Shown here one piece after another: positions 12,726-42,407 of a DNA stretch of 64,000 bases (the stretch's first letter is position 1; every line of letters starts with the position of its first letter). Location of the stretch: positions 32,001-96,000 of IMG/VR virus record IMGVR_UViG_3300042878_001497. One strand, written 5' to 3'. The stretch is from a virus. Below the pieces are notes generated by a model. That model ran no database searches. It was not told the DNA's origin and saw nothing but the letters and a program-made list of their open reading frames with translations. The position numbers and the translations under genes were made by a program.

Positions 12726-12979
12726 GAATGGTTGAAGTTATTAAACATACCCTAGGCTTTTGCGGTGAGCACTGGCACCTAAATCTATTTAATATTATAG
12801 CAACGGGTGTTGGCTCCTTGCCGGTTATTTCGTATATTAAGTATAACTTAAAAAGGATATGGAAGCACTAGTTTATTTACTCCAAGGCATGGCTGCTACT
12901 GCTGGCGGACTTCTCGTATTTTACGTAGTGAAGTTTCTAGTTGAGGTAGCTCAAGGTAAGCACAGAAGTTAAGATTTAT

Positions 12980-13012
12980 AGGGTTTGCCTATACCCTTAT
13001 AATACCTGGCAG
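12980..13012 (+). promoter_or_regulatory. H-type pseudoknot candidate in queC leader
   Basis: P1 AGGGT/ACCCT; loop TTGCC pairs with downstream GGCAG; ends 18 nt before queC ATG. Confidence 0.5.
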
Positions 13013-13030: not shown

Positions 13031-13906
13031 ATGGCAAAACACGTTGTAGTTTCGTTATCTGGAGGAATGGATTCCTCAACACTCTTGCTTAGAGCATTGA
13101 GTGAATTTGATACTGTAACAGCAGTATCGTTTGACTACGGTCAAAAACACCGAGTAGAGCTTGAACGAGCTCAAGACCTGGTTAACTATTTGAATCTTAG
13201 AGCTGATGAGACTAAGTATAAAAGCGATGTAGCTGAAGTTATTATGCATCACTTTCCTAAAGTTAACTACCAGTTAATTAAACTTGACGGCTTGAGTCAA
13301 CTACTAAACTCGGCTCTAGTAACTGGAGGTGATGAAGTACCGGAAGGTCACTATGCTGCCGAGAACATGAAAGCTACCGTAGTACCTAACCGAAATAAAA
13401 TCTTCAGTTCAATCACCCAGGCAATCGCTTTATCTATCGCAAATGAAACAAAAGAAGAATGCTCCATCGCTCTCGGTATCCATGCCGGAGACCATGACAT
13501 CTACCCAGACTGCCGACAGGAGTTCCGCGACGCCGACGATCATGCGTTTCGTATGGGTAACTGGGATAACGATCGGGTATCTTATTGGACTCCTTACCTG
13601 GAAGGTAATAAGTTTACTATCTTAGAAGATGGAGAGAAGTTATGTGAGGAACTAGGACTTGAATTTGATGAAGTCTATAAGCGCACTAATACCTCTTATA
13701 AACCCATTAAGTGGTACAGTCGCAAAGAAACCAATGCATACGAATGGTACTCAGACTACAAATCAGCTTCTTCAGTAGAACGAGTTGAAGCATTTATCAA
13801 GCTAGGGCGTCCTGATCCTGCACCTTATGCTGACGAGACTGGCCCTGTGACCTGGGAGCACGTTGTGACCGAAGTATCTAAAGTACTTGAATCGCATACA
13901 AAGTAA
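13031..13906 (+). CDS. queC: 7-cyano-7-deazaguanine synthase
   Basis: SGGMDS PP-loop, FDYGQKH, VPNRN, YPDCR. Confidence 0.95.
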   Translation: MAKHVVVSLSGGMDSSTLLLRALSEFDTVTAVSFDYGQKHRVELERAQDLVNYLNLRADETKYKSDVAEVIMHHFPKVNYQLIKLDGLSQLLNSALVTGGDEVPEGHYAAENMKATVVPNRNKIFSSITQAIALSIANETKEECSIALGIHAGDHDIYPDCRQEFRDADDHAFRMGNWDNDRVSYWTPYLEGNKFTILEDGEKLCEELGLEFDEVYKRTNTSYKPIKWYSRKETNAYEWYSDYKSASSVERVEAFIKLGRPDPAPYADETGPVTWEHVVTEVSKVLESHTK

Positions 13907-17200: not shown

Positions 17201-18688
17201 CTATTAATTGATGCCTCGGGAAATACAGGTGAAACATTATATGCTACCAGCTCTTTTATTTATAATCCAACCTTAAATAGATTATCTATTGGGGATGATC
17301 CTAATAGACAAATTTACCTTTGGGGAGGTTCTCCCATTGTAACGGGCAGTACTGCCCTAGGTTTCTTTACTTTAGGAGACAATTCAGGCAATTATAATAC
17401 AGCTGTAGGATATTTTTCTCAAAGAACAAACTACGGTAGAGAAAATACTACTTTAGGCGCTTTTACTTTAGAGCTCCCAGCCGCTGGTGAAAGTGTAGAA
17501 AGTATTAAAAATACTGTAGTAGGATATGGTGCTTTGCGAAATACTGGGGATAGTACAAATACTCTAGCTGTAGCTATAGGATATAATGCATTAGGAACTG
17601 GGGGATCTAATAAAGATATTGCTATTGGTAACAGTGCTTTAATTGCAGGAAATACTGTCCCAGCAGGTACTGGTAAAAATATAGCCATTGGAGATAATGC
17701 AATGGCTGGAGGAATTGCAAGTGATGGTGGTAATAATATTGCTATAGGAACTAGCACTCTCAGTACTCTTTTAGGCAACGTATCTAATAATATAGCTATA
17801 GGTAATTTAGCCGGTAGTAGTGTATCTAGTGGAGCCGATAATGTTTTCTTAGGTGCGGATGCAGGCAGAACTGTATCTACTGGAACTCATAATACTTTTT
17901 TAGGTACTGAAGCGGGGGAACTTGTGACTACAGGTATTACGAATACTTTTGTAGGTAGGAGCGCCGGAGTTTCTTTTACAACAGGTAATAATAATGTTGT
18001 AATTGGTGGGTTTGGTGGAGCTGCTACAGGATATGTTTCACAAAATTCAAATATTTTTATATCAGATGGAGCTGGTCAAGTAAGAATTTTTGCTACAGGT
18101 TCTACAGGTAATATTGGTATTGATACATTTACTCCAGCTTTTAAGGTAGATGTAAACGGTACTTTAGGAGCTGAATTATCTAGTACTTCTGATAATTCTA
18201 ATATAGTATCTTGGAATAGTGCTACAGATGAAGTACAGTACATTCCCAAAATAAGCGTAGATACTAACGCATATAATCCTAGTGGGAGCGGTGGAGTTAG
18301 TGATAAGACTTATCTGGTATTAAATGACGGATACAGTATTGATAACGAGATAGAGTACGGATATTTCGCCCGCTCGTCACTGGTTAACTCTCCTCCTACA
18401 ACCTATACAGTTCTCACTGTCCCTCAAACCACATACCACTCAGTAGTAATAGACTACACAACCTCAGATTCATCTTATGCGTTTACTAGATCGCAAAGGT
18501 TTATTTGTCATTGGGATAACGGTAGTGGTATTTTCTATACTAATTCTGGAGCTCCAGATTTGGGATCTATAAATGCCTCTCATATACTAACTGGTGTTAT
18601 CTCTGCCGGTAATATTCAAATAAGGTTAACTAATTACCTTTCAGGTGGTAGAATTATAGGAGATTATAAGCTCTTTAAGAAAATATAA
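14255..18688 (+). CDS. Collagen-like tail fibre / adhesin protein
   Basis: Two long G-X-Q triplet blocks; YadA-head-like NxAIG repeats; N-terminus resembles that of ORF 46637. Confidence 0.85.
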   Translation: MAIILRQNTATNTGKGSRLTFTEMDSNLESFYISSSFANNTLILYTTGSVSHSVDLSSFGGNVDSGSFMASASAAGGVITFEKVDGSTFDVTVTNVASASKVNITNTSSSQGYYLVFAEATSGHQDLRADSSIVYNPDSNTLQTANLILTGDLTVQGTRTELQVTELNVEDKLITVASGSTTSAQADGAGIQIAGANQSVTWDHTNSRLKTSTDLGVTGTLNVSTVATDNALTDFVVLAGDGTLKKRTSIVGAQGVQGTTGTQGIQGITGTQGTQGTQGTQGTDGLQGIQGITGTQGTQGITGTQGTQGTQGTQGIQGIQGITGTQGVQGTTGTQGTDGLQGIQGITGTQGVQGITGIQGTQGTQGTQGTQGAQGITGTQGIQGVTGVQGTDGLQGTQGIQGITGTQGTQGIQGTYGVQGVQGVQGTDGSFGGATFDYTFDSTTTSGDPGQGKIRLSNSNENTSTQMYIDDLDDFGNDISSFMQTIDSVTSTVKGYARIANRTDATQYLLFQISNLTDNTGWWTIDITNQASSATSPFTNLEDITISFITTGDKGDTGPQGVQGTTGTQGTNGTQGIQGITGAQGIQGTTGTQGTDGTQGIQGITGTGLQGIQGTQGTNGTQGIQGITGAGTQGIQGTTGTQGNNGTQGIQGITGAGTQGIQGITGAQGTDGTQGIQGITGAGTQGTQGTTGTATQGIQGTQGTTGSATQGIQGIDGNQGIQGTTGTATQGIQGTQGTTGTATQGIQGTTGTATQGIQGTQGTTGTATQGIQGTTGTATQGIQGTQGTTGTATQGIQGTQGTTGTATQGIQGIIGSQGIQGTTGSATQGIQGTQGTTGTATQGTQGTQGTTGTATQGIQGTTGSATQGIQGTQGTTGTATQGIQGIQGTIGTATQGIQGTQGTTGTATQGIQGITGTQGTDGTQGIQGITGGQGTQGTTGTATQGIQGITGIQGTQGIQGPSNPNAISVDIANATGDVEYRSLLIDASGNTGETLYATSSFIYNPTLNRLSIGDDPNRQIYLWGGSPIVTGSTALGFFTLGDNSGNYNTAVGYFSQRTNYGRENTTLGAFTLELPAAGESVESIKNTVVGYGALRNTGDSTNTLAVAIGYNALGTGGSNKDIAIGNSALIAGNTVPAGTGKNIAIGDNAMAGGIASDGGNNIAIGTSTLSTLLGNVSNNIAIGNLAGSSVSSGADNVFLGADAGRTVSTGTHNTFLGTEAGELVTTGITNTFVGRSAGVSFTTGNNNVVIGGFGGAATGYVSQNSNIFISDGAGQVRIFATGSTGNIGIDTFTPAFKVDVNGTLGAELSSTSDNSNIVSWNSATDEVQYIPKISVDTNAYNPSGSGGVSDKTYLVLNDGYSIDNEIEYGYFARSSLVNSPPTTYTVLTVPQTTYHSVVIDYTTSDSSYAFTRSQRFICHWDNGSGIFYTNSGAPDLGSINASHILTGVISAGNIQIRLTNYLSGGRIIGDYKLFKKI
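15007..17135 (+). repeat. Coding 9-nt (Gly-X-Gln) tandem repeats in two blocks (~15007-15540, ~15910-17135)
   Basis: GGTACTCAA/GGTATTCAA-type units; GTQ/GIQ/GTT/ATQ peptides. Confidence 0.9.
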
Positions 18689-19397: not shown

Positions 19398-19586
19398 ATG
19401 TCAACTAATACGATATACCAACTAAGTTTAAAAGATTGGCCAATAGGATCAGATGGTCAAATCAATAAAAATCACACAGATATAGTCACCTTTTCTTCTA
19501 TAGAAGAAGCTAATGCTTTTATTGAAGCTAGCGGTTCAGAAGGAACATATAATATACAGGCCTTTATAGTAAAAACAGCCGAATAG
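19398..19586 (+). CDS. Small hypothetical protein
   Basis: 62-aa ORF closing the fibre module. Confidence 0.55.
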   Translation: MSTNTIYQLSLKDWPIGSDGQINKNHTDIVTFSSIEEANAFIEASGSEGTYNIQAFIVKTAE

Positions 19587-19619
19587 TTGTAGATTCAACT
19601 ATTTATTCTTATATTGTAT

Positions 19620-19650
19620 AGGTGTCGTAGCACCACCTTAAAAAAACACT
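19620..19650 (+). promoter_or_regulatory. preQ1 class I riboswitch-like aptamer (copy 1)
   Basis: AGGTG-TCGTAGCAC-CACCT-TAAAAAAA-CACT, between promoter and ATG of the ORF-queD-queE operon. Confidence 0.7.
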
Positions 19651-19653
19651 AAT

Positions 19654-19929
19654 ATGGCAAAAAAGCAGTTATTGACTGAACCGGTCCTTCCTAAGGACAG
19701 TATTATCAATCCCGAACTCTACCACAAGGTAAAAGGGACCAATTCTAAGATTGATACCAAGTTTAAGCACTTGGAGAAGATGCCTGATCAAAAATGGCAT
19801 CAAATTATTTCTTTTATTAAATCTGGCGTTCGAATTGTAGGCTACGGAATCATTCCTTTTGATTTGGTAGCAGCTGCAATCGTTCTTATATTTAGTGAAG
19901 TAATCGGTATTATTGAAGAATTAGTATGA
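19654..19929 (+). CDS. Small membrane protein heading the queD-queE operon
   Basis: C-terminal hydrophobic hairpin; ATGA overlap with queD. Confidence 0.65.
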   Translation: MAKKQLLTEPVLPKDSIINPELYHKVKGTNSKIDTKFKHLEKMPDQKWHQIISFIKSGVRIVGYGIIPFDLVAAAIVLIFSEVIGIIEELV

Positions 19930-20390
19930 GCACATTTAGATCAACAAAAGTATTTGATGGTTACTCAACAGTATTCCGTCAATGGAAAGCCGAAGGAACA
20001 CACTGCAGATTCCTTCACGGCTATGGAGTAAGTTTAAAAGTATGGTTCGAAGGTGAACTTGACGAACGTAACTGGGTATGGGATTTCGGAGGTATGAAAC
20101 GTGCTACTGGAACTATTGACGGTATGAATCCTAAAGCATGGATGGATCATATGCTCGACCATACTACAATTATTGCAGAAGATGATCCGTATCTTTCTTA
20201 CTTCCAGAATATGTACACAGAAGGTATGATTCAATTACGAGTTATTCCAGCTACTGGAGCAGAGCGTTTTGCAGAGTATTTCTACAATAAACTGAATACA
20301 TTTATTCAAGAAGAAACAGATAATCGTGTTAAAGTAGTTCAAGTTGAATTTCGTGAGCACGAAAAGAACACAGCATTTTATAAAGGTTAA
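19926..20390 (+). CDS. queD: 6-carboxytetrahydropterin synthase
   Basis: HCRFLHGY, DFGG, LDH, AERFA, E..N.A motifs. Confidence 0.92.
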   Translation: MSTFRSTKVFDGYSTVFRQWKAEGTHCRFLHGYGVSLKVWFEGELDERNWVWDFGGMKRATGTIDGMNPKAWMDHMLDHTTIIAEDDPYLSYFQNMYTEGMIQLRVIPATGAERFAEYFYNKLNTFIQEETDNRVKVVQVEFREHEKNTAFYKG

Positions 20391-20392
20391 TT

Positions 20393-21175
20393 ATGCCATT
20401 AGGAAGAATAGAAGATTATAGTAAAGTTCTACCGATTGTAGAGCTTTACACTTGCATCCAGTCAGAAGGCAGCCGTGCCGGCCGTCCTACTGTTGCAGTC
20501 CGTACTACAGGCTGTACCCACCGCTGCTACTTCGGAGAAGGCGGATGGTGTGATAGCTGGTACACTTCAATCCATCCGGAGAAAGGTAAATACACTTTCC
20601 AGGATATTATCAACATTTACGATCAGAATCCTGAAATTAAGGAGATGATGCTGACGGGCGGTTCACCGACCATGCACCCTAAGCTTGTAAATGAACTAAC
20701 TCACTTTGCAAATGAAAGGCAAATTATCATCACAATCGAAACAGAAGGGTCTGCTTTCCTCGAAACAGATCATCCTATTGGGCTTATATCTTTCAGCCCT
20801 AAATTTAGCAACAGCGTGCCTGTACTTGGGACTACTACACCTCTTGGGGATATTGTAGACGAGAAACTTATCAAGACTCACAACCGTTACCGTCTCAATA
20901 AAGAGTCGATTGCTAAGTCAATGACTTACCATTCGGACTACCATATGAAGGTAGTAGTAAACCCAGTGGAGGACCCTCAGACATGGGCAGAGATTAAGTC
21001 TTTCCTAGATGAACTACAGGTACCTAAGCATAAGATTTGGATCATGCCTCCGGGGGATAATCGTCAGGAACTTATCCGAGTTTACCCAGCGGTAATTCAA
21101 TGGTGTACAGACAATATGTACAACTTCACCGGCCGTGAACACATCATTGCTTTTGATACTAAAAGAGAAGTTTAA
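20393..21175 (+). CDS. queE: 7-carboxy-7-deazaguanine synthase (radical SAM)
   Basis: IQSEG, RTTGC..RC......CDS, TGGSP, IETEG, SPK. Confidence 0.92.
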   Translation: MPLGRIEDYSKVLPIVELYTCIQSEGSRAGRPTVAVRTTGCTHRCYFGEGGWCDSWYTSIHPEKGKYTFQDIINIYDQNPEIKEMMLTGGSPTMHPKLVNELTHFANERQIIITIETEGSAFLETDHPIGLISFSPKFSNSVPVLGTTTPLGDIVDEKLIKTHNRYRLNKESIAKSMTYHSDYHMKVVVNPVEDPQTWAEIKSFLDELQVPKHKIWIMPPGDNRQELIRVYPAVIQWCTDNMYNFTGREHIIAFDTKREV

Positions 21176-21529
21176 TGTCTTTCGTCATTCTTAAGCATAC
21201 TAGCATCCAAGGAACCCCTCGTACTATCATCGTGAATGATAGCGAGGGTATTGCTATGGAATTTGAATCTGCAGATGCTGCTTTGAAACTAGCAGAGATC
21301 TTTCAAGCCAATACTACCTCAGGAAATATTTACGAAGTAAAACAGTTAAAATAATGCCACACGGATATCTAGCAAACCTACATCAGTTGTGGGCTCTTGG
21401 CGTTCTTGAGCCAGCAGGCGTTATCGCCGCTATACATCCTTACGGGTACAAACTAAACTACCTTACCTTAAATGGGATCGGAGTAGGAAAAGAAAACGAA
21501 AGGTTTGAGTTCAAGTACAGAGAATAGTA

Positions 21530-21721
21530 ATGACATTAGGACAGGTTATAACAGTAGGAGATGATTGGTACCAGGTTATTAGAACAGTTAGAGAAGGTCG
21601 TGAATGGGATGTTGAACTTCTTAAACAGTACTGGTTTTGTTCGCATACCTTCCGTAAGGATGGTTTACTCTATTTTTGCCGAGCGATTGAAAAAGTTGAA
21701 TTTGAAGAAATAACAGAGTGA
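21530..21721 (+). CDS. Small hypothetical protein
   Basis: 63-aa ORF. Confidence 0.55.
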   Translation: MTLGQVITVGDDWYQVIRTVREGREWDVELLKQYWFCSHTFRKDGLLYFCRAIEKVEFEEITE

Positions 21722-22392
21722 TTGCAATACTAGGAGGAACAGGGTTGCTGGGAAAAGAGTTACAAAAGCTAGATTCTTCCTTAGTCTGTACGGGCCGGGA
21801 AATTGATATTACTAACTTTAAAGAAGTCTTCTACTACCTTAATAAAGTAAACCCGGATACTGTAGTCAACGCAGCTGCAATAACAAATTCCATAGAGGTT
21901 TCTGAGAATCCTATTCCTGCTATAGACGTTAATATTATAGGTGCTGCTAATATAGCTAAGTACTGTCAGCAATATGGTAAGAGATTGGTATATATTAGCA
22001 CAGACTACGTCTATCCCGGAACTGGTAACCATGTAGAGGATGATGCTCTATACCCAAATAACGAATATGCGTGGACTAAATTAGGGGGAGAATGTTCTTC
22101 TAGATTGGTGAAAGATCATTGTATAATTCGTACTAGTTTTGGAAGTAGAAAATTTCCTTATCCTGCTGCATATATAAATTTATTTACAAGTAAAGAATAC
22201 GTAGGTGTGCTTGCTCCTCAAATCTTAAAAATTATACAGAGTAAACTTAACGGAATTGTAAATGTAGGAGGTTACAGAAAAAGTTCATATATTTACGCAT
22301 CACAGTACAGCAAGGTTGACAAAATTCAATTAGAACATAGTAAAGATTTTAGCCTAAACACAGCAAAATATAATGAGAATTTCCCAGAGTGA
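21718..22392 (+). CDS. RmlD-like NDP-4-keto-sugar reductase (SDR)
   Basis: GGTGLLG, NAAA, ISTDYV, YAWTKLGGE. Confidence 0.85.
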   Translation: MIAILGGTGLLGKELQKLDSSLVCTGREIDITNFKEVFYYLNKVNPDTVVNAAAITNSIEVSENPIPAIDVNIIGAANIAKYCQQYGKRLVYISTDYVYPGTGNHVEDDALYPNNEYAWTKLGGECSSRLVKDHCIIRTSFGSRKFPYPAAYINLFTSKEYVGVLAPQILKIIQSKLNGIVNVGGYRKSSYIYASQYSKVDKIQLEHSKDFSLNTAKYNENFPE

Positions 22393-23605
22393 TTCATGCC
22401 CGATAACCGGAACTTCAGAAAGACTTAAGTACTTTTCTCTAGGCGAAATGCCGCTTGTTAATAATCTTGCCGATACTTTAGAAGAATCTTTAACCTGCAA
22501 AAAGATTCCTTTAGAACTAAACTATTTTGCAGAATCAAAACTTACTGCTTTAACTACTTTTGTAGACAGTCAGTCTTTGTTTAGTAACTACCTTTACAAG
22601 TCTGGAGTTAACACTCCCTACATTTCTCATAGTAGAAAAATGTTCAAAGATGTACGGAAGCTCTTACAACTTAAAGACCAGGACCTTATTGTAGACATTG
22701 GAGGTAATGATGGAACACTTCTTAAAACTTTTCGAGAAACTTCTAAAACATCCCTACAGTACCTAAATATTGATGGTTCTGAAAACATCACACAGTACTC
22801 TAAAGAACAGGGAATTAATACACTCTGCGAGTTTTTTAATGAAGATACCCCTACCCGAGTTAAAACTTTAGCCAAAGTTGTTGTATCCACAAATGTTTTT
22901 CAACATTTACAGGATACTAATTCTTTTGTTAGAGGGGTAAAAAAACTTCTACAATCAGACGGTGTATGGGTACTAGAATTTCCGTACTGGCTTCATGATA
23001 TGAAGACCAAGCAATTTGACCAGGTGTACCATGAGCATATGTACTACTACACAGTTACTCCGCTAGTAGCAATGATGCAAAAACACGAGTTGGAAGTTTT
23101 ACGAGTAGTTCCTCAAAAAATACATGGAGGTACTTTGCGTCTAATCATAGGGCATTTAGGAGGTAATCAACACCTAAAAGATAGTAGTGTAGAAGTTTAC
23201 CTAAAGAGAGAATCTAAACTTACACCCAAGTTCTACCAGCAGTGGGGAGCAAAAATTAAACAGCATTTGGTATCCTGTGAGAGTGAACTAAAGTACCTAA
23301 AAGGTAAAGGTAAGACCCTGGTAGGATTTGCTGCAAGTGCTAAGGGATGTGTCTTTCTAAACAGTGCCGGGATAGATTGTAAAGTACTTGATTTCATTAT
23401 CGATGATACTGATATAAAACAAGGCAAATTTATGCCGGGTACCGGACTAGAAATTAAAGGGAGAGGAGATGTAGATTTTGAACAAATTGATTACATTCTT
23501 ATACTCTCTCATAATTTTAGTGATCATATCATAAAAAGTCTTAAAGACGAAGGATATGAAGGTAAGTTTGTTGTGTGTTTACCTTCTTATAAAGTACTAT
23601 CATGA
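22373..23605 (+). CDS. NDP-hexose C-methyltransferase-like SAM methyltransferase
   Basis: DIGGNDG, FDQVYHEH, HGGTLR, AASAKG, KQGKFMPG. Confidence 0.88.
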   Translation: MRISQSDSCPITGTSERLKYFSLGEMPLVNNLADTLEESLTCKKIPLELNYFAESKLTALTTFVDSQSLFSNYLYKSGVNTPYISHSRKMFKDVRKLLQLKDQDLIVDIGGNDGTLLKTFRETSKTSLQYLNIDGSENITQYSKEQGINTLCEFFNEDTPTRVKTLAKVVVSTNVFQHLQDTNSFVRGVKKLLQSDGVWVLEFPYWLHDMKTKQFDQVYHEHMYYYTVTPLVAMMQKHELEVLRVVPQKIHGGTLRLIIGHLGGNQHLKDSSVEVYLKRESKLTPKFYQQWGAKIKQHLVSCESELKYLKGKGKTLVGFAASAKGCVFLNSAGIDCKVLDFIIDDTDIKQGKFMPGTGLEIKGRGDVDFEQIDYILILSHNFSDHIIKSLKDEGYEGKFVVCLPSYKVLS

Positions 23606-24378
23606 ATTCAATCCCAGTAATAGGAACAGCAATTGTAAACACGCCCTACTGGCTATACCGGCTGATTGCTAGTGTAGACTACCCGGTGGATAACTTTGTT
23701 ATCTTTAATAACAACGGTCGAGGAGAAATCACAGAAGAGCTTGACAATCTAGCTAAACTCTCTCATAAGTTTATTAAGAAAATTACAGTATGCCACTTAC
23801 CTGCTAATCTAGGTGTGCCTGGAGCATTTAACCTTATTATAAAAAGTTATATAAATTCTCCTAGCTGGTTGATAGTAAACTACGATGTAGCTTTTGGACC
23901 AGGCTTCTTAAAAGAGATGGCAGAGAAAGCTTCTGACCCGGAAGTAGGAATGGTACATGGTAAAGCAGGTGATTTTGATTTACCGAGCTGGGATGTATTC
24001 CTAATTAAAGACTGGGTAGTACAGCAGTACGGACTCTTTGACGAAAACTTAACCCCAGCTTACTGCGAAGATGCAGATTATTTTATGAGATTTGTGCATA
24101 GGCCTATAAAAGTAGTAAAGCAGCTAGACAGTATTTATTACCACGGCCCTGGTGTAGATTACTACGAACACGGAAGTCAAACCAAAAAAGGAGAACCTGC
24201 ACTAGCAGCAAAATTAGATCAGGTTAACGAAATAAATTTTGAATATATGTTTAAAAAGTGGGGTGAAGGTTGGAGATGGGTAAACCCACTACCTACACCT
24301 TTTGATATAGAAGGAACTCCTATCTCAACAACTACTTTTGATTTAGAATTTGTACGCAAAAAACATTTAGGCTTTTAA
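23602..24378 (+). CDS. Glycosyltransferase (GT2-like)
   Basis: NLGV, VNYDV, GLFDEN..PAYCEDADY. Confidence 0.8.
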   Translation: MNSIPVIGTAIVNTPYWLYRLIASVDYPVDNFVIFNNNGRGEITEELDNLAKLSHKFIKKITVCHLPANLGVPGAFNLIIKSYINSPSWLIVNYDVAFGPGFLKEMAEKASDPEVGMVHGKAGDFDLPSWDVFLIKDWVVQQYGLFDENLTPAYCEDADYFMRFVHRPIKVVKQLDSIYYHGPGVDYYEHGSQTKKGEPALAAKLDQVNEINFEYMFKKWGEGWRWVNPLPTPFDIEGTPISTTTFDLEFVRKKHLGF

Positions 24379-24379
24379 T

Positions 24380-25054
24380 ATGGACGAATATACTTTATAC
24401 GACGCTGAACCGGATTCACAGTGGGGAATCATTACAGGAAATTTAGCACAACACAACCCTCAGCAGAATCCACGATTCTGGGTGGTTGATAATTTTTATA
24501 AGAATCCCGACCAAATTAGGGAGTACGGTCTCTCGCAAGTATACTTTGAGGGGGAAGGAGCAGTGGGTTGGAGAACCCGTAAGCAGTTCCTTTTTGATGG
24601 ACTCAAAGAGCAGTTTGAAAAAATTACAAACAAGAAGATTTTAGATCATACCCCGGAAGGAACCGGCTGGTACGATGTAGGTATTAACGGACGCTTCCAG
24701 GCCTGTGAAGCAGGAACTAAGACGGTATTTCACTGCGATAGCCAGCAATGGGCTGCAGTTCTCTATCTAACTCCAGATGCTCCTCCCCAGAGCGGTACTA
24801 GCTTCTACCGACATAAGGAGACTAAAGTTAGACATAGTTCTGAGATTGCTTGGGGTACCGGGGAAGAACTGGCCACATTTAATCAAAAGACCTTTGTTGA
24901 TCCTACTCCTTTTGAGAGAGTAGATACAGTTGGTAACGTTTATAACAGGCTTGTTATTTTTGATGGAAAGCTTATTCACTCCGGTAATGATTACTTTGGA
25001 TGGGATATTCCTTCTAGCAGGTTCTTTCAAATTTTCTTTTTTGATGTTGAGTAA
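24380..25054 (+). CDS. 2OG-Fe(II) oxygenase-like protein (DUF6445-like)
   Basis: VVDNFY, HCD, AVLYLTP, GTSFY, NRLVIFDG..IH, R..QIFF. Confidence 0.8.
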   Translation: MDEYTLYDAEPDSQWGIITGNLAQHNPQQNPRFWVVDNFYKNPDQIREYGLSQVYFEGEGAVGWRTRKQFLFDGLKEQFEKITNKKILDHTPEGTGWYDVGINGRFQACEAGTKTVFHCDSQQWAAVLYLTPDAPPQSGTSFYRHKETKVRHSSEIAWGTGEELATFNQKTFVDPTPFERVDTVGNVYNRLVIFDGKLIHSGNDYFGWDIPSSRFFQIFFFDVE

Positions 25055-25409
25055 AGTTTTTTTAATTGACATCGACGGTACAATCTGCGATGATATCAAG
25101 AACGAAGAAAGCCACCTGTACCCGGCCGCTAACCCTTTGCCCAATGCTAGGGATATTATCAATAAATGGTACGATGAAGGTAGCGTAATTACTTTCTTTA
25201 CTGCCCGAGAATCCAAAGATAGAGCAGTAACAGAGGAGTGGCTTCACCGCCACGGTTTCAAGTACCACGGGCTTGTAATGGACAAGCCTAGAATTAAAGA
25301 TGGACAGGAGTATGTCTGGATTGATAACAGGAAAGTTAGAGCAATCACCTATCTTGGTACTTGGTCCGAACTAACAGAAGTAGATGCAAGAATACAAACC
25401 TTTCAGTAA
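25044..25409 (+). CDS. HAD-superfamily phosphatase
   Basis: DIDGT, FTAR, KP, WIDN; start at ATG 25044. Confidence 0.85.
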   Translation: MLSKVFLIDIDGTICDDIKNEESHLYPAANPLPNARDIINKWYDEGSVITFFTARESKDRAVTEEWLHRHGFKYHGLVMDKPRIKDGQEYVWIDNRKVRAITYLGTWSELTEVDARIQTFQ

Positions 25410-26404
25410 TGAACAACTTAGATAAAGCATACCAGGCACTCCTACAGGACATCCTAGATAACGGAGTGAAAAAGGAAGACAGAACAGGTACTGGAACTAT
25501 CTCAGTATTTGGTCGTCAAATTAGACATAAAATGTCCGAAGGTTATCCTTTGCTTACTATCAAGAAAATGGCATTCAAGACTATGGTAACTGAGTTACTA
25601 TGGTTTTTGAAAGGAGATACCAATATCAAGTATTTGGTTGAGAATGGATGTAACATATGGACTGGGGATGCTTATAAGAATTATTCAAGTAAAGTTCAAC
25701 CATGGGAACCTCATTCAGATCTGAATCATTTCATTGAACGAATCAAAACTGATGATAAGTTTGCTAAGAAGTGGGGTGAATTAGGTCCAATTTACGGTAA
25801 GCAATGGAGAGCATTTGATGAAGAGGAATGGGGTGGTATAGACCAAATCCAAAACCTAATTAACGACCTCAAAACAAACCCAGACTCAAGACGATTAATG
25901 GTTACAGCTTGGAATCCATCCTATCAGCATCAAATGGTTCTTCCGCCTTGTCATTATGGATTTCAAGTCTATACTCGTGAATTACATTTGGATGAGCGAA
26001 TTGACATTTATAATGGTGATAGAATTCCCATGAATCAAAGTAGCGATTATTTTCACGAGCATATGGATGCTTACGGTATTCCTCGTAGAGCAATCTCTTT
26101 AATGTGGAATCAACGTTCAGTAGATACATTCTTAGGTTTACCTTTCAATATTGCCTCTTACGGACTATTGCTTGAAATGATTGCTAAAGAAGTAAACATG
26201 GTACCTGACGAATTGATTGGTAATTTAGGAGATGTTCATTTGTATTCAAATCACATTGAACAAGCAAAAGAACAAATCACTAGAAAGCCAATGACATTAC
26301 CTACAGTAGAGATAACAGAACTAAATTTGTTGGAAGGTAGTGTATCGGTAGAACTAAAAAATTATATTCACCACGACCCAATTAAAGCACCTTTATCAAA
26401 TTAA
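25409..26404 (+). CDS. thyA: Thymidylate synthase
   Basis: DRTGTGT, ELLWFL, GPIYGKQW, LPPCH, QRSVD, PFNIASY, HLYSNH. Confidence 0.97.
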   Translation: MNNLDKAYQALLQDILDNGVKKEDRTGTGTISVFGRQIRHKMSEGYPLLTIKKMAFKTMVTELLWFLKGDTNIKYLVENGCNIWTGDAYKNYSSKVQPWEPHSDLNHFIERIKTDDKFAKKWGELGPIYGKQWRAFDEEEWGGIDQIQNLINDLKTNPDSRRLMVTAWNPSYQHQMVLPPCHYGFQVYTRELHLDERIDIYNGDRIPMNQSSDYFHEHMDAYGIPRRAISLMWNQRSVDTFLGLPFNIASYGLLLEMIAKEVNMVPDELIGNLGDVHLYSNHIEQAKEQITRKPMTLPTVEITELNLLEGSVSVELKNYIHHDPIKAPLSN

Positions 26405-26406
26405 TT

Positions 26407-27000
26407 ATGAAAAAACTAATACTACTATTTTTATTTCCTATCTCGCTGTTTGGACAGCTCCGTGATAGTGTTTACTTTAATAACAACAATTTTATTGTTA
26501 ACTACTCCGAAACCCTAGAAGGACCTCGTTCGATACGTTATACAGTGCTTTGTCCGACCGGCACAGCTTCAAGATCGGGTATGGAGTTCTACAAGGAGAA
26601 AAAGATTCACACCTCAGATCACAAAGACTATGAAGCAAACGAATGGGATAAAGGGCACATGGCCCCCGCGGCATCTTTTAATTGCAATCGTGATATGCTA
26701 TACGGTACTTTCACCTATGTCAATTCTAGCCTTCAACAACAAAGTCTAAATAGAGGAGTTTGGAAAAAACTCGAAGTAAGAGAAAGAGAATTAGCTACAT
26801 CAGGACCAGTACGAGTTTTTATCCGAGTTGAATACCCTACTACTCCTGTTAGAGTTACAACCGGTGCTGCTATACCTTTAGGGTACTATAAGGAAATAAA
26901 AGTTGGAAATAAGAGAGAATGTTACTATTTTAAGAACGTAGCCCCGTCTACTTCGGACTTGGAGGCTTTTAAATGTACTTGCAAAAACGTTATCCAATGA
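26407..27000 (+). CDS. Secreted DNA/RNA non-specific endonuclease
   Basis: Signal peptide; DKGHMAPAA; LNRGVWKKLE. Confidence 0.88.
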   Translation: MKKLILLFLFPISLFGQLRDSVYFNNNNFIVNYSETLEGPRSIRYTVLCPTGTASRSGMEFYKEKKIHTSDHKDYEANEWDKGHMAPAASFNCNRDMLYGTFTYVNSSLQQQSLNRGVWKKLEVRERELATSGPVRVFIRVEYPTTPVRVTTGAAIPLGYYKEIKVGNKRECYYFKNVAPSTSDLEAFKCTCKNVIQ

Positions 27001-27905
27001 AAAAATTACTAATTCTACTAACCCTAGTATTAGGGTTTACCTCAAGTGCATCACACCTCCTAGGAGGCGGTATAGGAGTATTTCAAACCAGTAAAGATTC
27101 TACCTCTGTAGGAGTATGGCTGGTCTCGGATGCTCAAGGGTTTCCAATGCCAAACTCAATCAATGTTGAGAAGTGGGAGATGAACTCGGTAGGATGGTAC
27201 GTTCAAAACGGAGCTATCTCACTCTCTAAAACTACCTCTGCGACCTTCCAAGGACACATCCTTACCAACTATACTTCAGAGTACCTGGATCTAGATTCTA
27301 ATAAGTACCGGTTTATTTATAGGAACTGCTGCTGGGGCATGCTAAGTAATTCTACCAGTTCTATGAACTCAGAATTTATTATTTCAGCTGATTACTGGCA
27401 TATCGCACTTAACTCAACTCCGTACGTTAGACTGCCTTTTATTATTAACCAGCAGACAGGTACTCGCAATACAATGAAACCGATCTGGGGAACAAATGCA
27501 TTCTTAGTTAATCCTGATACCTGGGATAATACGTCCATTACGCAGACAGACCTGCATTCAGGTTATGCTAACGGAGTATTCGTACCTCAAATTCATACTG
27601 AGATTCCTATGTATGTAAGTAATGACAGCATTAGCTGGGTACCTGGTACTCTTGGCAGATACGCAACAGGGTTTGAAATTAAAGATATGCGAAATGGACA
27701 GGTCATTGGCATTCAACGAGCACAGTGGACTTTTCTGGTAGTTCCCTCTACTATAGGTATAGAAGAAAATATTAAAGATTCTCAGACACAGTACCTGGTA
27801 TATGATTGGTACGGCCGGATTGTAGGAGATAAGTCAGAAGGGTTGAAAGGACTTTACGTAGTAAGGTACAGTAACGGTGAAGTAGAAAAAGTACTGTGCA
27901 ACTAA
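26997..27905 (+). CDS. Secreted protein with degenerate T9SS-like C-terminus
   Basis: Signal peptide then SHLLGG; ends YDWYGR...GLYVVRYSNG..EKV. Confidence 0.7.
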   Translation: MKKLLILLTLVLGFTSSASHLLGGGIGVFQTSKDSTSVGVWLVSDAQGFPMPNSINVEKWEMNSVGWYVQNGAISLSKTTSATFQGHILTNYTSEYLDLDSNKYRFIYRNCCWGMLSNSTSSMNSEFIISADYWHIALNSTPYVRLPFIINQQTGTRNTMKPIWGTNAFLVNPDTWDNTSITQTDLHSGYANGVFVPQIHTEIPMYVSNDSISWVPGTLGRYATGFEIKDMRNGQVIGIQRAQWTFLVVPSTIGIEENIKDSQTQYLVYDWYGRIVGDKSEGLKGLYVVRYSNGEVEKVLCN

Positions 27906-28303
27906 TCAACACCCACCCGATCAAGAAATCAGACCTAGGCTTCCACGGAAATCTCTTCGGTGGAAAGCTTATGGCCTGGATCGATGCGGCAGCAGCCTCT
28001 TATGCAATGGAGGTGTGTCACAATCGCAGAATGGTTACCGTCTGCATTGATAAGTGTGTGTTTAAGAAGCCTGCAAAGGAAGGGTCTCTGCTAAAGATAT
28101 ACGGGGATACCCTACATATCGGCACTACTAGCGTAACGCTTTACCTGGAAGGAAGAAGCTTTAACGTCTACACCCACGGTGAGGATGTAGTGCTGAGTAC
28201 CAACATTACCTTTGTCCGCATTGACGAAGAAGGAAGTGCTATTCCAATTTCAGATACAGTAAGAGAAAATTTAAAAAAGTATTTAGATGCAAAGTCTATT
28301 TGA
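27896..28303 (+). CDS. Acyl-CoA thioesterase (hotdog fold, YciA-like)
   Basis: HGNLFGGKLMAWID, VTV, FKKP, TFV. Confidence 0.88.
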   Translation: MQLINTHPIKKSDLGFHGNLFGGKLMAWIDAAAASYAMEVCHNRRMVTVCIDKCVFKKPAKEGSLLKIYGDTLHIGTTSVTLYLEGRSFNVYTHGEDVVLSTNITFVRIDEEGSAIPISDTVRENLKKYLDAKSI

Positions 28304-28799
28304 TATTAAAGAGATCGAAATCCAGACTAAAATCCTTGCCAAGAAGATTTCAGCTGAACACCAAGGAGACAAAACTCCCGTTGTAATGGTAGGACTGTTG
28401 AACGGAGCATTTATGTTCTATGCAGACCTGGTACGCAATATGGGCATTGATGTGGAATGTGACTTCATGAGAGTTAAAAGCTACACAGCCCAGTTCAAGC
28501 AAGGAGATATTAAGATTATTAAAGATCTCGAGACTCCTATCAGAGGAAAGCACGTGTACCTGGTAGACGATATCTACGATACCGGCTCTACTATGAAAGC
28601 ATTAATTGAGTACCTAGAGGTAAAAAAGCCCGCCTCTATCTCAATTGTAACTCTACTCCGTAGAGAAACCTCTCCAATCCCGGATCAAGCCTTCTACAAG
28701 TACCATGCATTCACCATCAAGGATGAATGGGTAGTAGGATTTGGAATGGATGACGAAAAAGGTTATTCAAGAAATCTCAATGGAGTATTTGCTCTGTAA
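28287..28799 (+). CDS. hpt: Hypoxanthine/guanine phosphoribosyltransferase
   Basis: LNGAFMF, LVDDIYDTGST, WVVGFGMD. Confidence 0.9.
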   Translation: MQSLFDIKEIEIQTKILAKKISAEHQGDKTPVVMVGLLNGAFMFYADLVRNMGIDVECDFMRVKSYTAQFKQGDIKIIKDLETPIRGKHVYLVDDIYDTGSTMKALIEYLEVKKPASISIVTLLRRETSPIPDQAFYKYHAFTIKDEWVVGFGMDDEKGYSRNLNGVFAL

Positions 28800-28822
28800 G
28801 AGAAGTTTTCGTATATTAAACA

Positions 28823-28855
28823 AAGGTGTTCGAAGCACCACCTTAAAAAAACAAT
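28823..28855 (+). promoter_or_regulatory. preQ1 class I riboswitch-like aptamer (copy 2)
   Basis: AAGGTG-TTCGAAGCAC-CACCTT-AAAAAAA-CAAT, between promoter and folE ATG. Confidence 0.72.
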
Positions 28856-28858
28856 TAT

Positions 28859-29569
28859 ATGGCAGATAAAAAACGTTATGATGTAGAGTTAGCTCAAGCC
28901 GGCTTTGCCAACGGTATTTCCTCTCAACTGGCAGAGAAATTTAACATGCATAAGATGAACGATATCTCTCTTACCGAACAAGAGAAATACGTTATTATTG
29001 AAAGAGCAGCTAAAGCATTCGGTGAGTTTCTCGATGCATTAGGAGTTGATTGGAAGAACGATCCTAACTCTTCAGATACTCCACGTCGTGTAGCAAAAGC
29101 TTATGTAAACGATTTATGGTACGGCCGATTCAATCCTATGCCTGCTATCACAGCCTTCCCTTCAGATGGTTACGACGGCATTGTATTTGAAGGAAATATT
29201 CCTTTGACTTCGATGTGTTCACATCACCATCAGACCATTACCGGTCGAGTTCATATCGGCTACATCCCCTCTAAGGACGGAAAGGTAATCGGGCTTTCTA
29301 AACTGAATCGTATTGTAGAGCATTTCGGCCGTCGAGGAGCTATTCAGGAGCAGCTTACTGTTGCTATCCATAACGCAGTTGATACTGTGTGTGAAGGTAA
29401 CCTTGGAGTAGCTGTAATGATTGAGGCAGGTCATAACTGTGTATCATGCCGAGGCACCAAGCACGCCGGTGCATCAATGAAAACATCAAAGCTTTCAGGC
29501 AGCTTCCTTGAAGAAGATTCAGCCCGTGCAGAGTTTTATGAATTTGTAAAAGGATACGCATGCAAGTAA
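28859..29569 (+). CDS. folE: GTP cyclohydrolase I
   Basis: DTPRRVAK, SMCSHH, GLSKLNR, IQEQLT, HNCVSCRG. Confidence 0.95.
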   Translation: MADKKRYDVELAQAGFANGISSQLAEKFNMHKMNDISLTEQEKYVIIERAAKAFGEFLDALGVDWKNDPNSSDTPRRVAKAYVNDLWYGRFNPMPAITAFPSDGYDGIVFEGNIPLTSMCSHHHQTITGRVHIGYIPSKDGKVIGLSKLNRIVEHFGRRGAIQEQLTVAIHNAVDTVCEGNLGVAVMIEAGHNCVSCRGTKHAGASMKTSKLSGSFLEEDSARAEFYEFVKGYACK

Positions 29570-30054: not shown

Positions 30055-30239
30055 CACCCCAGCAGCTAATCGATCAAAATAAAACCTTCTCAGAAGAGTT
30101 GCAGCAATGGATTGTACCTCTTATCTTTGTAGACGAAGCTCTTCAGATGAAAACTGCCCAGGATGTAGATGCTAGTATGAAGAGACTTGAAGAAGTAATG
30201 CAAGACCTCAACACAGTAATTAGCAAGATAAATGATTAA
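30051..30239 (+). CDS. Small hypothetical protein
   Basis: 62-aa ORF overlapping both neighbours. Confidence 0.6.
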   Translation: MTPQQLIDQNKTFSEELQQWIVPLIFVDEALQMKTAQDVDASMKRLEEVMQDLNTVISKIND

Positions 30240-31062
30240 AATTGCCCATGAGTCTCCAAAAGCTATTTTTAAAGAGATTCAAGAACTTACCGACTACGAC
30301 TACGCTCTAGTTCACCTCTTTGAAGAGGATCCTGAATACCTTCAGAAGTTTAAGGATGCTCTGGCAGCCGGCCGAGAAGTTATTCTAGATAATTCTATTT
30401 TTGAGTTAGAAGAAGCTTTTGATGCTAATCGTTTTGCTTACTGGATTAACGAACTTAAGCCAACCTGGTACATCGTTCCTGACTCGTTAGAGAATGTAGA
30501 GAAGACTATGTCTAATATGGCAGAATGGAATATACACTATGCTGATAAAGTTCCTGCAGAATGTAAGAAGATTGGAGTAGTACAGGGAAAGACTTACTCT
30601 CAGATAGTCAATTGCTACGAATACATGGTCAGTATAGCCGAAGTAGATATGGTGGCAATCTCTTTCGATTACAGTTATTTCCAAGAGAAATTCCCTCATC
30701 CTAACAAATACGTTAGCTGGATGCTAGGCCGGGTACAGTTGCTAGGTCGAATGCTTAAAGACGGAGTTATTAATCCTGACGTACCTCACCACCTTTTAGG
30801 TTGCGGACTACCTCAAGAGTTTCAATTCTACCGAGAGGCTAAGTACGATTGGATTTACTCCCTAGATACTTCCAATCCTGTGGTTCACGGACTGAAGGAG
30901 ATTTACTACAAAGACCAAGGACTGTGGAATAAAGAATCTCAGAAGCTCTTTACCATGATTAACTCCGAAGTTACGGAGAAGCAAATGGAGGTCATTCGTC
31001 ATAATGTTTCACGCTTTAGATGGTTTGCAAATGGAAACGCGCCCGTGGGTAACATTCTTTAG
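30232..31062 (+). CDS. TGT-fold 7-deazaguanine insertion enzyme (DpdA3-like)
   Basis: ILDNSIFE, IVPD, GVVQG, HLLG, SLDTS match TGT/DpdA barrel motifs; lies inside the que cluster. Confidence 0.75.
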   Translation: MIKIAHESPKAIFKEIQELTDYDYALVHLFEEDPEYLQKFKDALAAGREVILDNSIFELEEAFDANRFAYWINELKPTWYIVPDSLENVEKTMSNMAEWNIHYADKVPAECKKIGVVQGKTYSQIVNCYEYMVSIAEVDMVAISFDYSYFQEKFPHPNKYVSWMLGRVQLLGRMLKDGVINPDVPHHLLGCGLPQEFQFYREAKYDWIYSLDTSNPVVHGLKEIYYKDQGLWNKESQKLFTMINSEVTEKQMEVIRHNVSRFRWFANGNAPVGNIL

Positions 31063-31567: not shown

Positions 31568-32082
31568 TTAAAAGAGTTGCATTAGTAGGAGCTAGTAGTA
31601 CCGGTAAGACGACTGTGTATGAGCTTCTTAAGAATCAGTTCCCGAAGTGGGAGTTTGTAAATGAGAGTACTCGTTCGGTAGCTCGTTACGGCTTTCCTAT
31701 CAATGAACTAGGTACTACAGAAACTCAGTTAGCTATCTCAAGCTTTCATTTAGAGGCATTGCTTAAACCTTATAATCTTATTCTGGATCGTTGTTACTTA
31801 GATCTAATAGTTTACTCTCGTCATATGCCGGGACTATCTCAATCAGGCTTAGATTTTATCGAAGCTACCTGGCAGCGAGTTCAAGACGAATATACTCATT
31901 ATATCTACTTTCCTATCGAATTCGATGCAGTCGATGACGGAGAAAGAAGTGTTGATGAAGATTGGAGAAAAATTATCGACGAAGAGTTCAAGTATCAATT
32001 AGACCTAACAGACAGGCATTACCTGACTGTAACCGGTTCACCTATGCAAAGAGTAAATCAAATCCTTAAATACATTAAATAA
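31564..32082 (+). CDS. P-loop nucleotide kinase (NadR/AAA_28-like)
   Basis: GASSTGKTT, E..R, ILDRC.LD, DDGER. Confidence 0.8.
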   Translation: MIKRVALVGASSTGKTTVYELLKNQFPKWEFVNESTRSVARYGFPINELGTTETQLAISSFHLEALLKPYNLILDRCYLDLIVYSRHMPGLSQSGLDFIEATWQRVQDEYTHYIYFPIEFDAVDDGERSVDEDWRKIIDEEFKYQLDLTDRHYLTVTGSPMQRVNQILKYIK

Positions 32083-32996
32083 TGGACGCTAACAAGAATC
32101 AAAGCGCAGTTGTAGAGATTGCAAGTAAACACCTCGGACAGGTAGGTGGTGCAGGCTACTCAGACAAATACGATCCCTCACTGCTAGTAGCAGTACCTCG
32201 TTACCTCAACCGAGAGGCTTACGGCATCAAAGAAGACAGCCTACCTTTCGTAGGAGTTGATTCATGGAATGCCTACGAAGTATCAGCAATCACAGAGAAG
32301 GGACGTCCGGTAGCAGGCATGCTTAAGATTGTATGCCCGGCCGATTCACCATTCCACGTTGAGTCAAAGTCAATCAAGCTTTACCTCAACTCATTCAATA
32401 TGACTCCTTTTGGCAAGACAGCCAAAGAGTGTATCAAGTTTATCGAAACTCAAGTAGCTAAGGACCTTACCGAGCTTCTGCAAGGGGATGTTATTTGTAC
32501 CTTCTTCGGTAACGATTACGGAGTTGAGTTTCAATTCGATGGCTACCAAGACCTAGCCGGTCTAGTAAACCTAGATGAAGTAGAATTTACTTCATTCCAC
32601 TCAGATGCTTCTCAATTGAAGGTCTGGGAGGTAAAAGAAGAAAACGTTGTTAAAGAGATTCATTCAGACCTTCTACGTTCTAACTGCCGGGTAACTAATC
32701 AGCCGGACTGGGGTGATGTTTACATCCGTATGGAAGGTAAGAACGTAGCTGATGAAGCATCACTAGCACAGTACATTGTATCTCACCGCCAGGTCTCTCA
32801 CTTCCACGAAGAGATCTGTGAGATGATATTTACTCATCTCATGCAAGCTTATCAGCCTGAAAAACTGATGGTTGCATGTCTTTATACGCGACGTGGAGGA
32901 ATTGATATTAATCCTATTCGAGCCACTCATGCCGAATTGATCCCGGGATGGTTTAAGGATTCGAATAAACGGATGAAAAAAACTTTACGTCAATAA
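32082..32996 (+). CDS. queF: NADPH-dependent 7-cyano-7-deazaguanine reductase (bimodular)
   Basis: WNAYEVS, VESKSIKLYLNSF, LRSNCRVTNQPDWG, FHEEICE, YTRRGGIDINP. Confidence 0.95.
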   Translation: MDANKNQSAVVEIASKHLGQVGGAGYSDKYDPSLLVAVPRYLNREAYGIKEDSLPFVGVDSWNAYEVSAITEKGRPVAGMLKIVCPADSPFHVESKSIKLYLNSFNMTPFGKTAKECIKFIETQVAKDLTELLQGDVICTFFGNDYGVEFQFDGYQDLAGLVNLDEVEFTSFHSDASQLKVWEVKEENVVKEIHSDLLRSNCRVTNQPDWGDVYIRMEGKNVADEASLAQYIVSHRQVSHFHEEICEMIFTHLMQAYQPEKLMVACLYTRRGGIDINPIRATHAELIPGWFKDSNKRMKKTLRQ

Positions 32997-35475: not shown

Positions 35476-35916
35476 ATGACACACATCAAGTACACTCCGT
35501 GGACTGCAGACTATACGTCATCCACATTCGACATCCTATTCAAGGATTTCTTTAACACGAACTCAACGTTCGTATCACCGATCGACCAAAAGATCGGACA
35601 TCCAGTAGACATTTATGAAACCGAAAAAGGGTTATTCTTCGAGATCGCCGCAACGGGGCTATCGAAGCAAGATATCAAAATCTCAATTGAAGGTGAAATC
35701 CTTCGAATTATTCACGATAAAGTGGAAGAACAGGTCGATAAGACTAAAGTTCGTTATTACAACAAAGGACTTAGTAGACGATCATTCAATCTAGGTTATA
35801 AAATTGCTCGTAGGTTTGACCTCAGCACAATTGACGCCCAGATGAAAGACGGATTGCTTAAGATCTTCTTACCTCACACCGAGGAACATAAACCTCAAGA
35901 AGTAAAGATTAAGTAA
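35476..35916 (+). CDS. Small heat-shock protein (Hsp20)
   Basis: PVDIYET, GLSKQDI, RSF, AQMKDGLLKI. Confidence 0.93.
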   Translation: MTHIKYTPWTADYTSSTFDILFKDFFNTNSTFVSPIDQKIGHPVDIYETEKGLFFEIAATGLSKQDIKISIEGEILRIIHDKVEEQVDKTKVRYYNKGLSRRSFNLGYKIARRFDLSTIDAQMKDGLLKIFLPHTEEHKPQEVKIK

Positions 35917-35974
35917 AGTTACATTTGGTCCCCTGCGATTTTTTTCGTATCTTTAAGTATTAATCAAAACAGTT

Positions 35975-41057: not shown

Positions 41058-41142
41058 GCACCAGTGATGAAATGGTAGACATGAGGGACTTAAAATCCCT
41101 TGGGCAGGAATGCCCGTGCCGGTTCGAGTCCGGCCTGGTGTA
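41058..41142 (+). tRNA. tRNA-Leu(TAA)
   Basis: GCACCAG/CTGGTGT acceptor; AGGGA-CTTAAAA-TCCCT; long variable arm; GGTTCGAGTCC. Confidence 0.93.
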
Positions 41143-41229
41143 CAGAAGAAGGGTTGGAGGTAAGAAAAAAAATTCGTATCTTTAATCTATAGAACAAAGA
41201 GGTTCTTTGACTTGTTGGCGGTATAGAAT

Positions 41230-41312: not shown

Positions 41313-41318
41313 TAATAT

Positions 41319-42402: not shown

Positions 42403-42407
42403 CATAC

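Follow-up and report, generated by a model that had tools for sequence, protein, structure and literature searches.

Are the two short leaders that precede 7-deazaguanine genes in a viral genome from IMG/VR riboswitches, and if so, of which kind? The window, by which we mean the whole 64,000-nucleotide stretch that was analysed, covers bases 32001-96000 of the viral record IMGVR_UViG_3300042878_001497, which has 173,415 bp and is rated as complete. Its nearest cultured relatives are the Flavobacterium phage vB_FspM_immuto (hereafter immuto) and, more distantly, the Cellulophaga phiST group. An initial annotation of the window had pointed out two near-identical elements at 19620-19650 and 28823-28855 and likened them to class I prequeuosine-1 (preQ1-I) riboswitches. 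Both elements were confirmed directly in the sequence, including a 17-mer common to them. From sequence comparison we propose, with a probability of roughly 0.7, that the phage encodes, in these two leaders, riboswitches with the preQ1-I fold, miniaturised relatives of the type II subtype without a Shine-Dalgarno (SD) sequence, and that they function as off-switches.

The elements and their parts are given below; P1 denotes the first stem, and R1 is a covariance model built from the elements of relatives.

19620..19653 (+), first element, putative preQ1-I type II-like aptamer that makes up the whole leader; Rfam PreQ1 10.2 bits, R1 56.3 bits.
Parts of the first element: P1, 19620-24 and 19634-38; loop, 19625-33; putative specificity C, 19633; A-tract, 19640-46; post-tract C, 19647; spacer, 19648-53.
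28823..28858 (+), second element, putative preQ1-I type II-like aptamer; Rfam PreQ1 21.8 bits with E = 0.011 in a 131-nt search, R1 55.6 bits.
Parts of the second element: P1, 28823-28 and 28839-44; loop, 28829-38; putative specificity C, 28838; A-tract, 28845-51; post-tract C, 28852; spacer, 28853-58.

The first element consists of AGGTG (19620-24), TCGTAGCAC (19625-33), CACCT (19634-38), a T followed by seven adenines (19639-46), a C (19647) and ACTAAT, after which the ATG follows at 19654. Written out in full it is AGGTG-TCGTAGCAC-CACCT-TAAAAAAA-C-ACTAAT-ATG (19620-19656). The second is composed of AAGGTG (28823-28), TTCGAAGCAC (28829-38), CACCTT (28839-44), seven adenines (28845-51), a C (28852) and AATTAT in front of the ATG at 28859. 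The element is about 33 nt long, and the 17-nt core CACCACCTTAAAAAAAC is identical in both copies. With up to three mismatches permitted, this core occurred twice in the window, where 0.32 occurrences were expected. The stem pattern AGGTG-N5-14-CACCT had one additional match there, which was without the loop. When R1 was applied to the whole 173,415-bp genome, the two elements were the sole sites and the runner-up reached 15.5 bits; the element was not found by this search before any other gene start of the genome.

The assignment of the first element to a small open reading frame (ORF) followed by queD and queE, and of the second to folE, was upheld by Pfam searches.

19654..19929 (+), small ORF of 91 aa with a hydrophobic C-terminal module ending EELV; the commonest gene directly 3' of the aptamer in relatives.
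19926..20390 (+), queD, 6-pyruvoyl-tetrahydropterin synthase (PTPS) family; PF01242, E = 8.5e-15.
20393..21175 (+), queE, radical S-adenosylmethionine enzyme, 7-carboxy-7-deazaguanine synthase-like; PF04055 at cut-off, about 72% DNA identity to the immuto queD-queE region.
28859..29569 (+), folE, GTP cyclohydrolase I, step 1 of the pathway; PF01227, E = 9.2e-44.

The family was collected from folE and queD loci in IMG/VR that were scanned with the core pattern. This yielded 102 distinct viral instances, and at least 117 matching stretches are present in IMG/VR. That P1 would covary in related phages was borne out, as five stem variants were found (GGTG/CACC, GGAG/CTCC, AGTG/CACT, TGAG/CTCA and TGTG/CACA). 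The folE leader of immuto carries GGAG-TCGTAGAAC-CTCC-ATAAAAAC, and its stem represents a compensatory change with respect to the window. In an alignment of 19 sequences (A1) covariation is seen in two of the four core pairs, and all 76 cells are paired. The 5-bp P1 described initially does form in the window, but the core that is conserved among relatives comprises 4 bp; the fifth pair forms in five of the 19 aligned sequences.

Because the original detector had demanded pairing, P1 was retested with a pattern that fixed the 3' strand only and left the 5' strand free. Exact complementarity of the free bases was seen in 81 of 84 distinct viral contexts versus four of 33 bacterial matches. These 33 matches were obtained from 596 Gb, where roughly 140 were expected by a hand estimate from the information content of the pattern. 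With one exception we rejected them as genuine elements, since they are chance matches to the 3' half. The exception (L306) is the sole complete element among species-representative genomes, as seen by a scan in which much of the core sequence was fixed. It heads the small ORF on a contig of 5.9 kb, a probable phage sequence that had been assigned to a Verrucomicrobiales metagenome-assembled genome. Columns that the detector left unconstrained are 99-100% conserved among the viral instances, and the flanks are variable.

Such a leader was missing from over 20 folE loci on Flavobacteriales chromosomes, which encode FolE 59-64% identical to the phage enzyme. In 151 sampled Flavobacteriales genomes no real match to R1 or to the Rfam PreQ1 model (RF00522) was detected; two weak ones are situated inside coding regions. 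Within the genomes searched, the element was thus not borrowed from the host clade. A BLAST search of 50,697 GenBank phage records with the short elements returned it in immuto isolates alone.

All 99 instances with an identifiable downstream gene are located in 7-deazaguanine operons, and none was found upstream of an unrelated gene. The downstream genes are distributed as follows.

48 instances: homolog of the small ORF of the window, followed by queD-queE where checked.
41 instances: folE.
3 instances: queD.
2 instances: queE.
4 instances: a 197-aa lipoprotein-like ORF inserted ahead of smallORF-queD-queE.
1 instance: FolE2 (PF02649).

FolE2 performs the same reaction as FolE and is not homologous to it. 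In the FolE2 case (contig L262:3067-4062, minus strand) the aptamer has the GGAG form, i.e. a non-orthologous replacement is found under the same leader. The element therefore tracks the entry reactions of the pathway and not one gene lineage. The two-element arrangement of the window is repeated with different stems on contigs L063/68/69 and L131. In 80 viral queC loci the element was absent.

Class I preQ1 riboswitches fold into an H-type pseudoknot, in which the A-rich loop L3 lies in the minor groove of P1 and a C stands just before the 3' strand of P1 (PMC11625349). This specificity C is preceded by A in type II and by U in type I, and the pocket is built from a uridine of L1, an adenine of L3 that reads the ligand and a G-C closing pair as its floor (PMC11625349). 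At the level of sequence each of the determinant positions checked is present in the phage element. The loop ends in AC in 99% of 85 instances, in a column that the detector did not constrain. The G-C closing pair of P1, likewise unconstrained, is invariant, and a U follows P1 in 19 of 19 sequences of A1. Four to seven adenines and then a C are found in all instances, which was partly imposed by the search, and the A after that C (99%) was unconstrained.

The element was compared with Firmicutes sequences. The Firmicutes site L358 reads CCGGG-UCGCAGCCAC-CCCGG-UUAAAAAAAAC-AAGGAGG, and the first element set beside it as RNA reads AGGUG-UCGUAGCAC-CACCU-UAAAAAAAC-ACUAAU. In common with the type II aptamers of Firmicutes queT, yhhQ and queF it has P1, UCG-Y-AG..AC, P1', the A-run and the C. 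With those of T. tengcongensis and B. subtilis (RF00522) it shares the G-C closing pair, the 7-deazaguanine genes, the tiny size and an expression platform embedded in the aptamer. It differs from type II in that the conserved P1 of the phage element is 4 bp (5-6 in the window and 4-6 overall), its loop is 9-10 nt as against 10-12 nt in Firmicutes, an AAGGAGG Shine-Dalgarno sequence is missing from P2 or the tail, and the second stem, P2, is barely detectable. Unlike type II, the phage element is also, in the genomes searched, found in viruses only and serves DNA modification rather than tRNA queuosine synthesis or salvage. R1, built from phage elements only, has a weak ability to recognise bacterial aptamers: when it was run on 36 kb of Firmicutes DNA, its two best matches landed exactly on true riboswitches.

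Which ligand such an aptamer might bind can be approached through the other pathway genes of the window.

13031..13906 (+), queC; PF06508, 126.6 bits; not under this aptamer, with a different conserved leader of its own at 12980-13012.
30232-31062 (+), DpdA3-like gene; phrog_19058; preQ1-consuming together with the DpdN-like gene, in the same order as DpdA and formyltransferase of immuto (PMC10516641).
31004-31567 (+), DpdN-like (PurN-like) formyltransferase; PF00551; preQ1-consuming together with the DpdA3-like gene.
32082..32996 (+), queF, preQ0 reductase, which makes preQ1; PF14819 and PF14489.

With FolE, QueD and QueE plus QueC and QueF, the genome is predicted to encode a complete route to free preQ1. 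In immuto DNA every G is replaced by 7-(formylamino)methyl-7-deazaguanine (fdPreQ1) (PMC10516641), and by analogy the final DNA base of the phage studied here is probably the same formyl-dPreQ1. QueF was found in 23 of 25 aptamer-bearing viral records, including all three complete ones, the two exceptions being fragments, versus three of 19 related folE-bearing records without an R1 aptamer match (Fisher p = 2.9e-7, for records that are phylogenetically related, many of them incomplete, and not independent). The phage phiST encodes no QueF and has no aptamer; it makes 7-deazaguanine (PMC10516641).

The same fold and role could also be combined with a ligand other than preQ1, such as preQ0, another intermediate or, should the free base be the substrate of DpdN, formyl-preQ1, the short L2 and the 4-bp P1 then representing a remodelled pocket. 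The loop length is indeed unlike that of all solved preQ1-I aptamers, and both the window and immuto encode a DpdN-like formyltransferase, the substrate of which may be the free base or DNA (PMC10516641). The association with QueF is also imperfect in both directions, as three aptamer-free relatives have QueF and two aptamer-bearing fragments are without it. Against this stands the association itself, because co-occurrence of QueF with the aptamer favours a ligand formed after QueF over preQ0 or 7-carboxy-7-deazaguanine (CDG). Moreover the specificity C, the L1 uridine, the L3 adenine and the G-C floor, which read preQ1 in all class I types (PMC11625349), are kept. We consider a different ligand rather unlikely, but within the same model it has to be taken seriously.

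Promoter-like boxes precede both elements.

19584..19615 (+), promoter-like pair of the first element: TAGTTG 19584-89, 20-nt spacer, TATATT 19610-15; read from the sequence.
28788..28817 (+), promoter-like pair of the second element: TTTG 28788-91, 20-nt spacer, TATATT 28812-17.

In relatives, AGTTG, a spacer of about 17-20 nt and TTATATT stand ahead of nearly all of 92 distinct instances, an arrangement which we take to resemble the -33/-7 promoter style of Bacteroidota. The box TTCGTATATTAA recurs intergenically in the window (repeat families D10 and D11) at 12810-12843, 35925-35958, 58456-58489 and other places, often with TTG about 20 nt upstream. It looks like a phage promoter motif and is also found ahead of both aptamers. 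In relatives P1 lies at a variable distance of 5-17 nt from the promoter box, and the ATG comes within a tight 5-12 nt of the post-tract C. This pattern, tight at the ATG and loose at the promoter, fits a function at the start codon better than one at the promoter.

The leaders are too short for a terminator and are without a Shine-Dalgarno sequence. An SD-like purine run after the aptamer was absent in all instances except one (GGAG, in L031), and this lack is expected for Bacteroidota-type translation (PMC6847099). The exceptional folE-leader variant (L031:2946-2991) has a loop ending in UC, UCGAAGUUC, as in type I, and the GGAG is located right after its A-tract; the host of its source phage may use Shine-Dalgarno sequences. 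In 79-96% of 84 leaders the A-tract covers -12 to -9; both elements of the window have it at -14 to -8. The mRNAs of Flavobacterium johnsoniae have no SD sequences, and the efficiency of initiation depends on their structure and on adenines at -14 to -11, -6 and -3; when -14 to -11 were changed to UCCC, expression went down by 90% (PMC6847099). The earlier suggestion of an SD-independent off-switch that works through the A-tract is sustained as far as the position of the tract is concerned, which agrees with these enhancer adenines (PMC6847099); its off direction and translational level are what we infer.

In the mechanism that we propose, a free 7-deazaguanine base that builds up would pair with the last C of the loop and stack on the G-C closing pair of P1. 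The A-tract would then dock in the minor groove of P1, and the post-tract C would pair with the loop G. The resulting pseudoknot would bury the adenines at about -14 to -8, the translation enhancer of ribosomes that are blind to Shine-Dalgarno sequences in Bacteroidota. The compact pseudoknot would end 5-12 nt from the AUG, translation of folE and of smallORF-queD-queE would start less often, and the outcome would be feedback on three GTP-consuming entry steps. A pairing between the 5' half of the first element and its start-codon region was considered as well and rejected, being not conserved and no better than in shuffled sequence.

Several observations weigh against a preQ1-I riboswitch. 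Scores from the Rfam PreQ1 model are far below its gathering score of 39 bits: the second element reached 21.8 bits, the first 10.2 bits and other variants at most 15.2 bits, and an unrelated hairpin in the same genome reached 19.8 bits. P2 is weakly supported, and its key pair cannot covary because neither the loop G nor the post-tract C varies. Part of the sequence invariance that we report was imposed by the search patterns. P1 is without any G-U pairs, so its covariation alone is also compatible with a palindromic DNA operator. Thermodynamic folding gave marginal hairpins with non-significant z-scores. The conserved P1 has just 4 bp, and solved aptamers have an L2 that is longer by 1-3 nt. 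Finally, the TATATT box of the first element ends 5 nt before the GGTG core and 4 nt before the fifth pair (19620), so close to P1 that transcription might start at or inside the stem.

Scores of 10-22 bits at a cut-off of 39 explain why the element goes unannotated, and at the gathering threshold an Rfam scan of the window returned tRNAs only. Additional matches of the Rfam PreQ1 model at genome positions 119428 and 21808 were dismissed as an unrelated hairpin with a 4-nt loop and a terminator-like hairpin. In 151 Bacillota genomes the same model found twelve sites, four of which were sub-threshold at 29.7-37.5 bits. These four (L357, L358, L360 and L361) are similar to the T. tengcongensis (Tte) aptamer, have AAGGAGG next to them and head yhhQ (Vut_1), queT and queF; they plainly look like genuine aptamers. 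Since such genuine Tte-like aptamers score 29.7-37.5 bits, the Rfam threshold under-calls the type II subtype. As for P2, its next pair, between loop position N9 and the third base after the post-tract C, is formed in 46 of 65 sequences, a count reached by 146 of 10,000 permutations, and all five G9 variants pair; we regard this as no more than suggestive. In the Tte aptamer, two of four P2 steps are canonical (PMC11625349).

Could the element instead be a pathway-specific operator bound by a protein, either an RNA hairpin for a translational repressor or an inverted-repeat DNA operator, whose likeness to preQ1-I is a coincidence of small size and AT-rich sequence? The sub-threshold Rfam scores comparable to that of an unrelated hairpin, the weak P2 and the exclusively Watson-Crick P1 variants, as in a palindromic operator, would agree with this, and so would the position of the element just 3' of a promoter-like box. 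The conserved loop and tail are, however, asymmetric and strand-specific, and the spacing is tight towards the ATG and variable towards the promoter box. The element is accompanied by no candidate regulator gene, the small ORF being membrane-like and downstream. That an operator should match all class I contact positions, be associated with QueF and also stand before the non-homologous FolE2 would be a large coincidence. We regard it as distinctly improbable.

The explanation that fits the data worst, and that we find hardly credible, is a conserved leader without sensing function, e.g. an mRNA-stabilising 5' hairpin with an A-rich enhancer inherited with the operons: the hairpin is marginally stable and A-rich tracts at -14 to -10 are also common before other genes of this phage, but the other gene starts of the 173-kb genome are without the element, the loop is far more conserved than the flanks, and placement before FolE2 together with shifts among queD, queE and smallORF heads means that the element was not simply inherited with one gene.

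Immuto provides the closest known system for the preQ1-I-like elements. Its gene set and local order match those of the window, queD-queE and folE are about 72% identical as DNA, and it has the same aptamer before folE; in contrast to the window it is without a copy before queD. The published account of immuto gives the enzymes and the fdPreQ1 product and no riboswitch or RNA regulation (PMC10516641). Riboswitches were found to be rare in phages in a 2017 census, which lists c-di-GMP-I and glutamine examples only (PMC5473149). Those of the C. difficile prophages (c-di-GMP-I) and of cyanophages (glutamine) are, as is proposed for the elements presented here, virus-encoded and metabolite-sensing RNAs. 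They differ in being rare, canonical members of bacterial classes (PMC5473149), whereas the present element is virus-specific, has more than 100 instances and heads genes of phage DNA hypermodification. The preQ1-II and preQ1-III riboswitches before queT sense metabolites of the same family, act on translation and in many cases have a small membrane protein downstream; they are, in contrast, unrelated HLout pseudoknots of about 70-100 nt that are restricted to Bacillota (PMC11625349), and neither was matched in Rfam searches of the window.

A possible precedent, a preQ1 riboswitch in phage Dp-1, was not borne out, as the que leader of that phage had no Rfam match. In the literature searched we found no report of a riboswitch that controls a DNA-modification pathway and none that joins riboswitch, DpdA and phage. 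The novelty claimed for riboswitch control over phage DNA modification thus holds in that literature, the immuto pathway paper being without a riboswitch. What is new is probably an element with the logic of the preQ1-I fold that is smaller, lacks an SD sequence, is specific to viruses and is tied to a DNA-hypermodification pathway.

The leader of queC contains a second conserved element.

12980-13012, queC-leader element, candidate pseudoknot unlike the first and second element; AGCGU-UUGCCUAU-ACGCU-AAAAUACCU-GGCA; queC ATG at 13031.

In a side listing the same positions, 12980-13012, are given in the form AGGGU-UUGCCUAU-ACCCU-UAUAAUACCU-GGCA. Of 80 viral queC loci, 39 have this element, that of immuto among them. 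Its P1 is paired to 99.4% with compensatory changes in three of five pairs, and the three bases of its P2 (GCC with GGC) hardly vary, one variant being compensatory. A match in Rfam was not found for it. Possibly the pathway has in it a second, different sensor.

The family of the small ORF comprises proteins of 65-107 aa with a variable N-terminus and a highly conserved C-terminal module of PDxKxHQ-xSFIKSGIRI, a hydrophobic stretch and SExVGIxEELV before the stop. It had no Pfam or PHROG match, and a protein atlas gave viral clusters only, with function unassigned. Its product could be a membrane component of the pathway. A wider picture, which we offer tentatively and think more likely wrong than right, would have two distinct virus-specific RNA sensors, the preQ1-I-like one on folE/folE2 and smallORF-queD-queE and the queC pseudoknot, perhaps reading preQ1 or formyl-preQ1 in the one case and preQ0 or CDG in the other. 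The small membrane protein would then be a new component of the pathway, and the first switch would be the first riboswitch that hides the A-rich, S1-proximal enhancer of SD-blind Bacteroidota ribosomes.

Other features of the window were recorded separately. Between queE and thyA (21718-25054) lies a sugar-modification cassette with an RmlD-like reductase, a C-methyltransferase, a glycosyltransferase of family GT2 and DUF6445; it could provide a further route of DNA or surface modification. A 1477-aa ORF at 14255-18688 consists mostly of collagen-like triplet repeats (PF01391; many repeat families with a 9-nt period). Phage-encoded Hsp20-like protein and GroEL-like chaperonin are found at 35476-38179, and a cluster of eight tRNA genes at 41058-42789.

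If a 7-deazaguanine is bound by the two leaders, phages would use RNA feedback to balance a GTP-consuming pathway at the scale of whole-genome G replacement. The element would be a fourth and smaller subtype of a well-studied riboswitch class, missed by the current Rfam thresholds, and an example of natural riboswitch control without Shine-Dalgarno sequences that acts on the A-rich enhancer of Bacteroidota. With more than 100 instances it would also be a compact marker for preQ1-type DNA modification in viral metagenomes, and immuto together with Flavobacterium sp. LMO8 offers a cultured system for this element.

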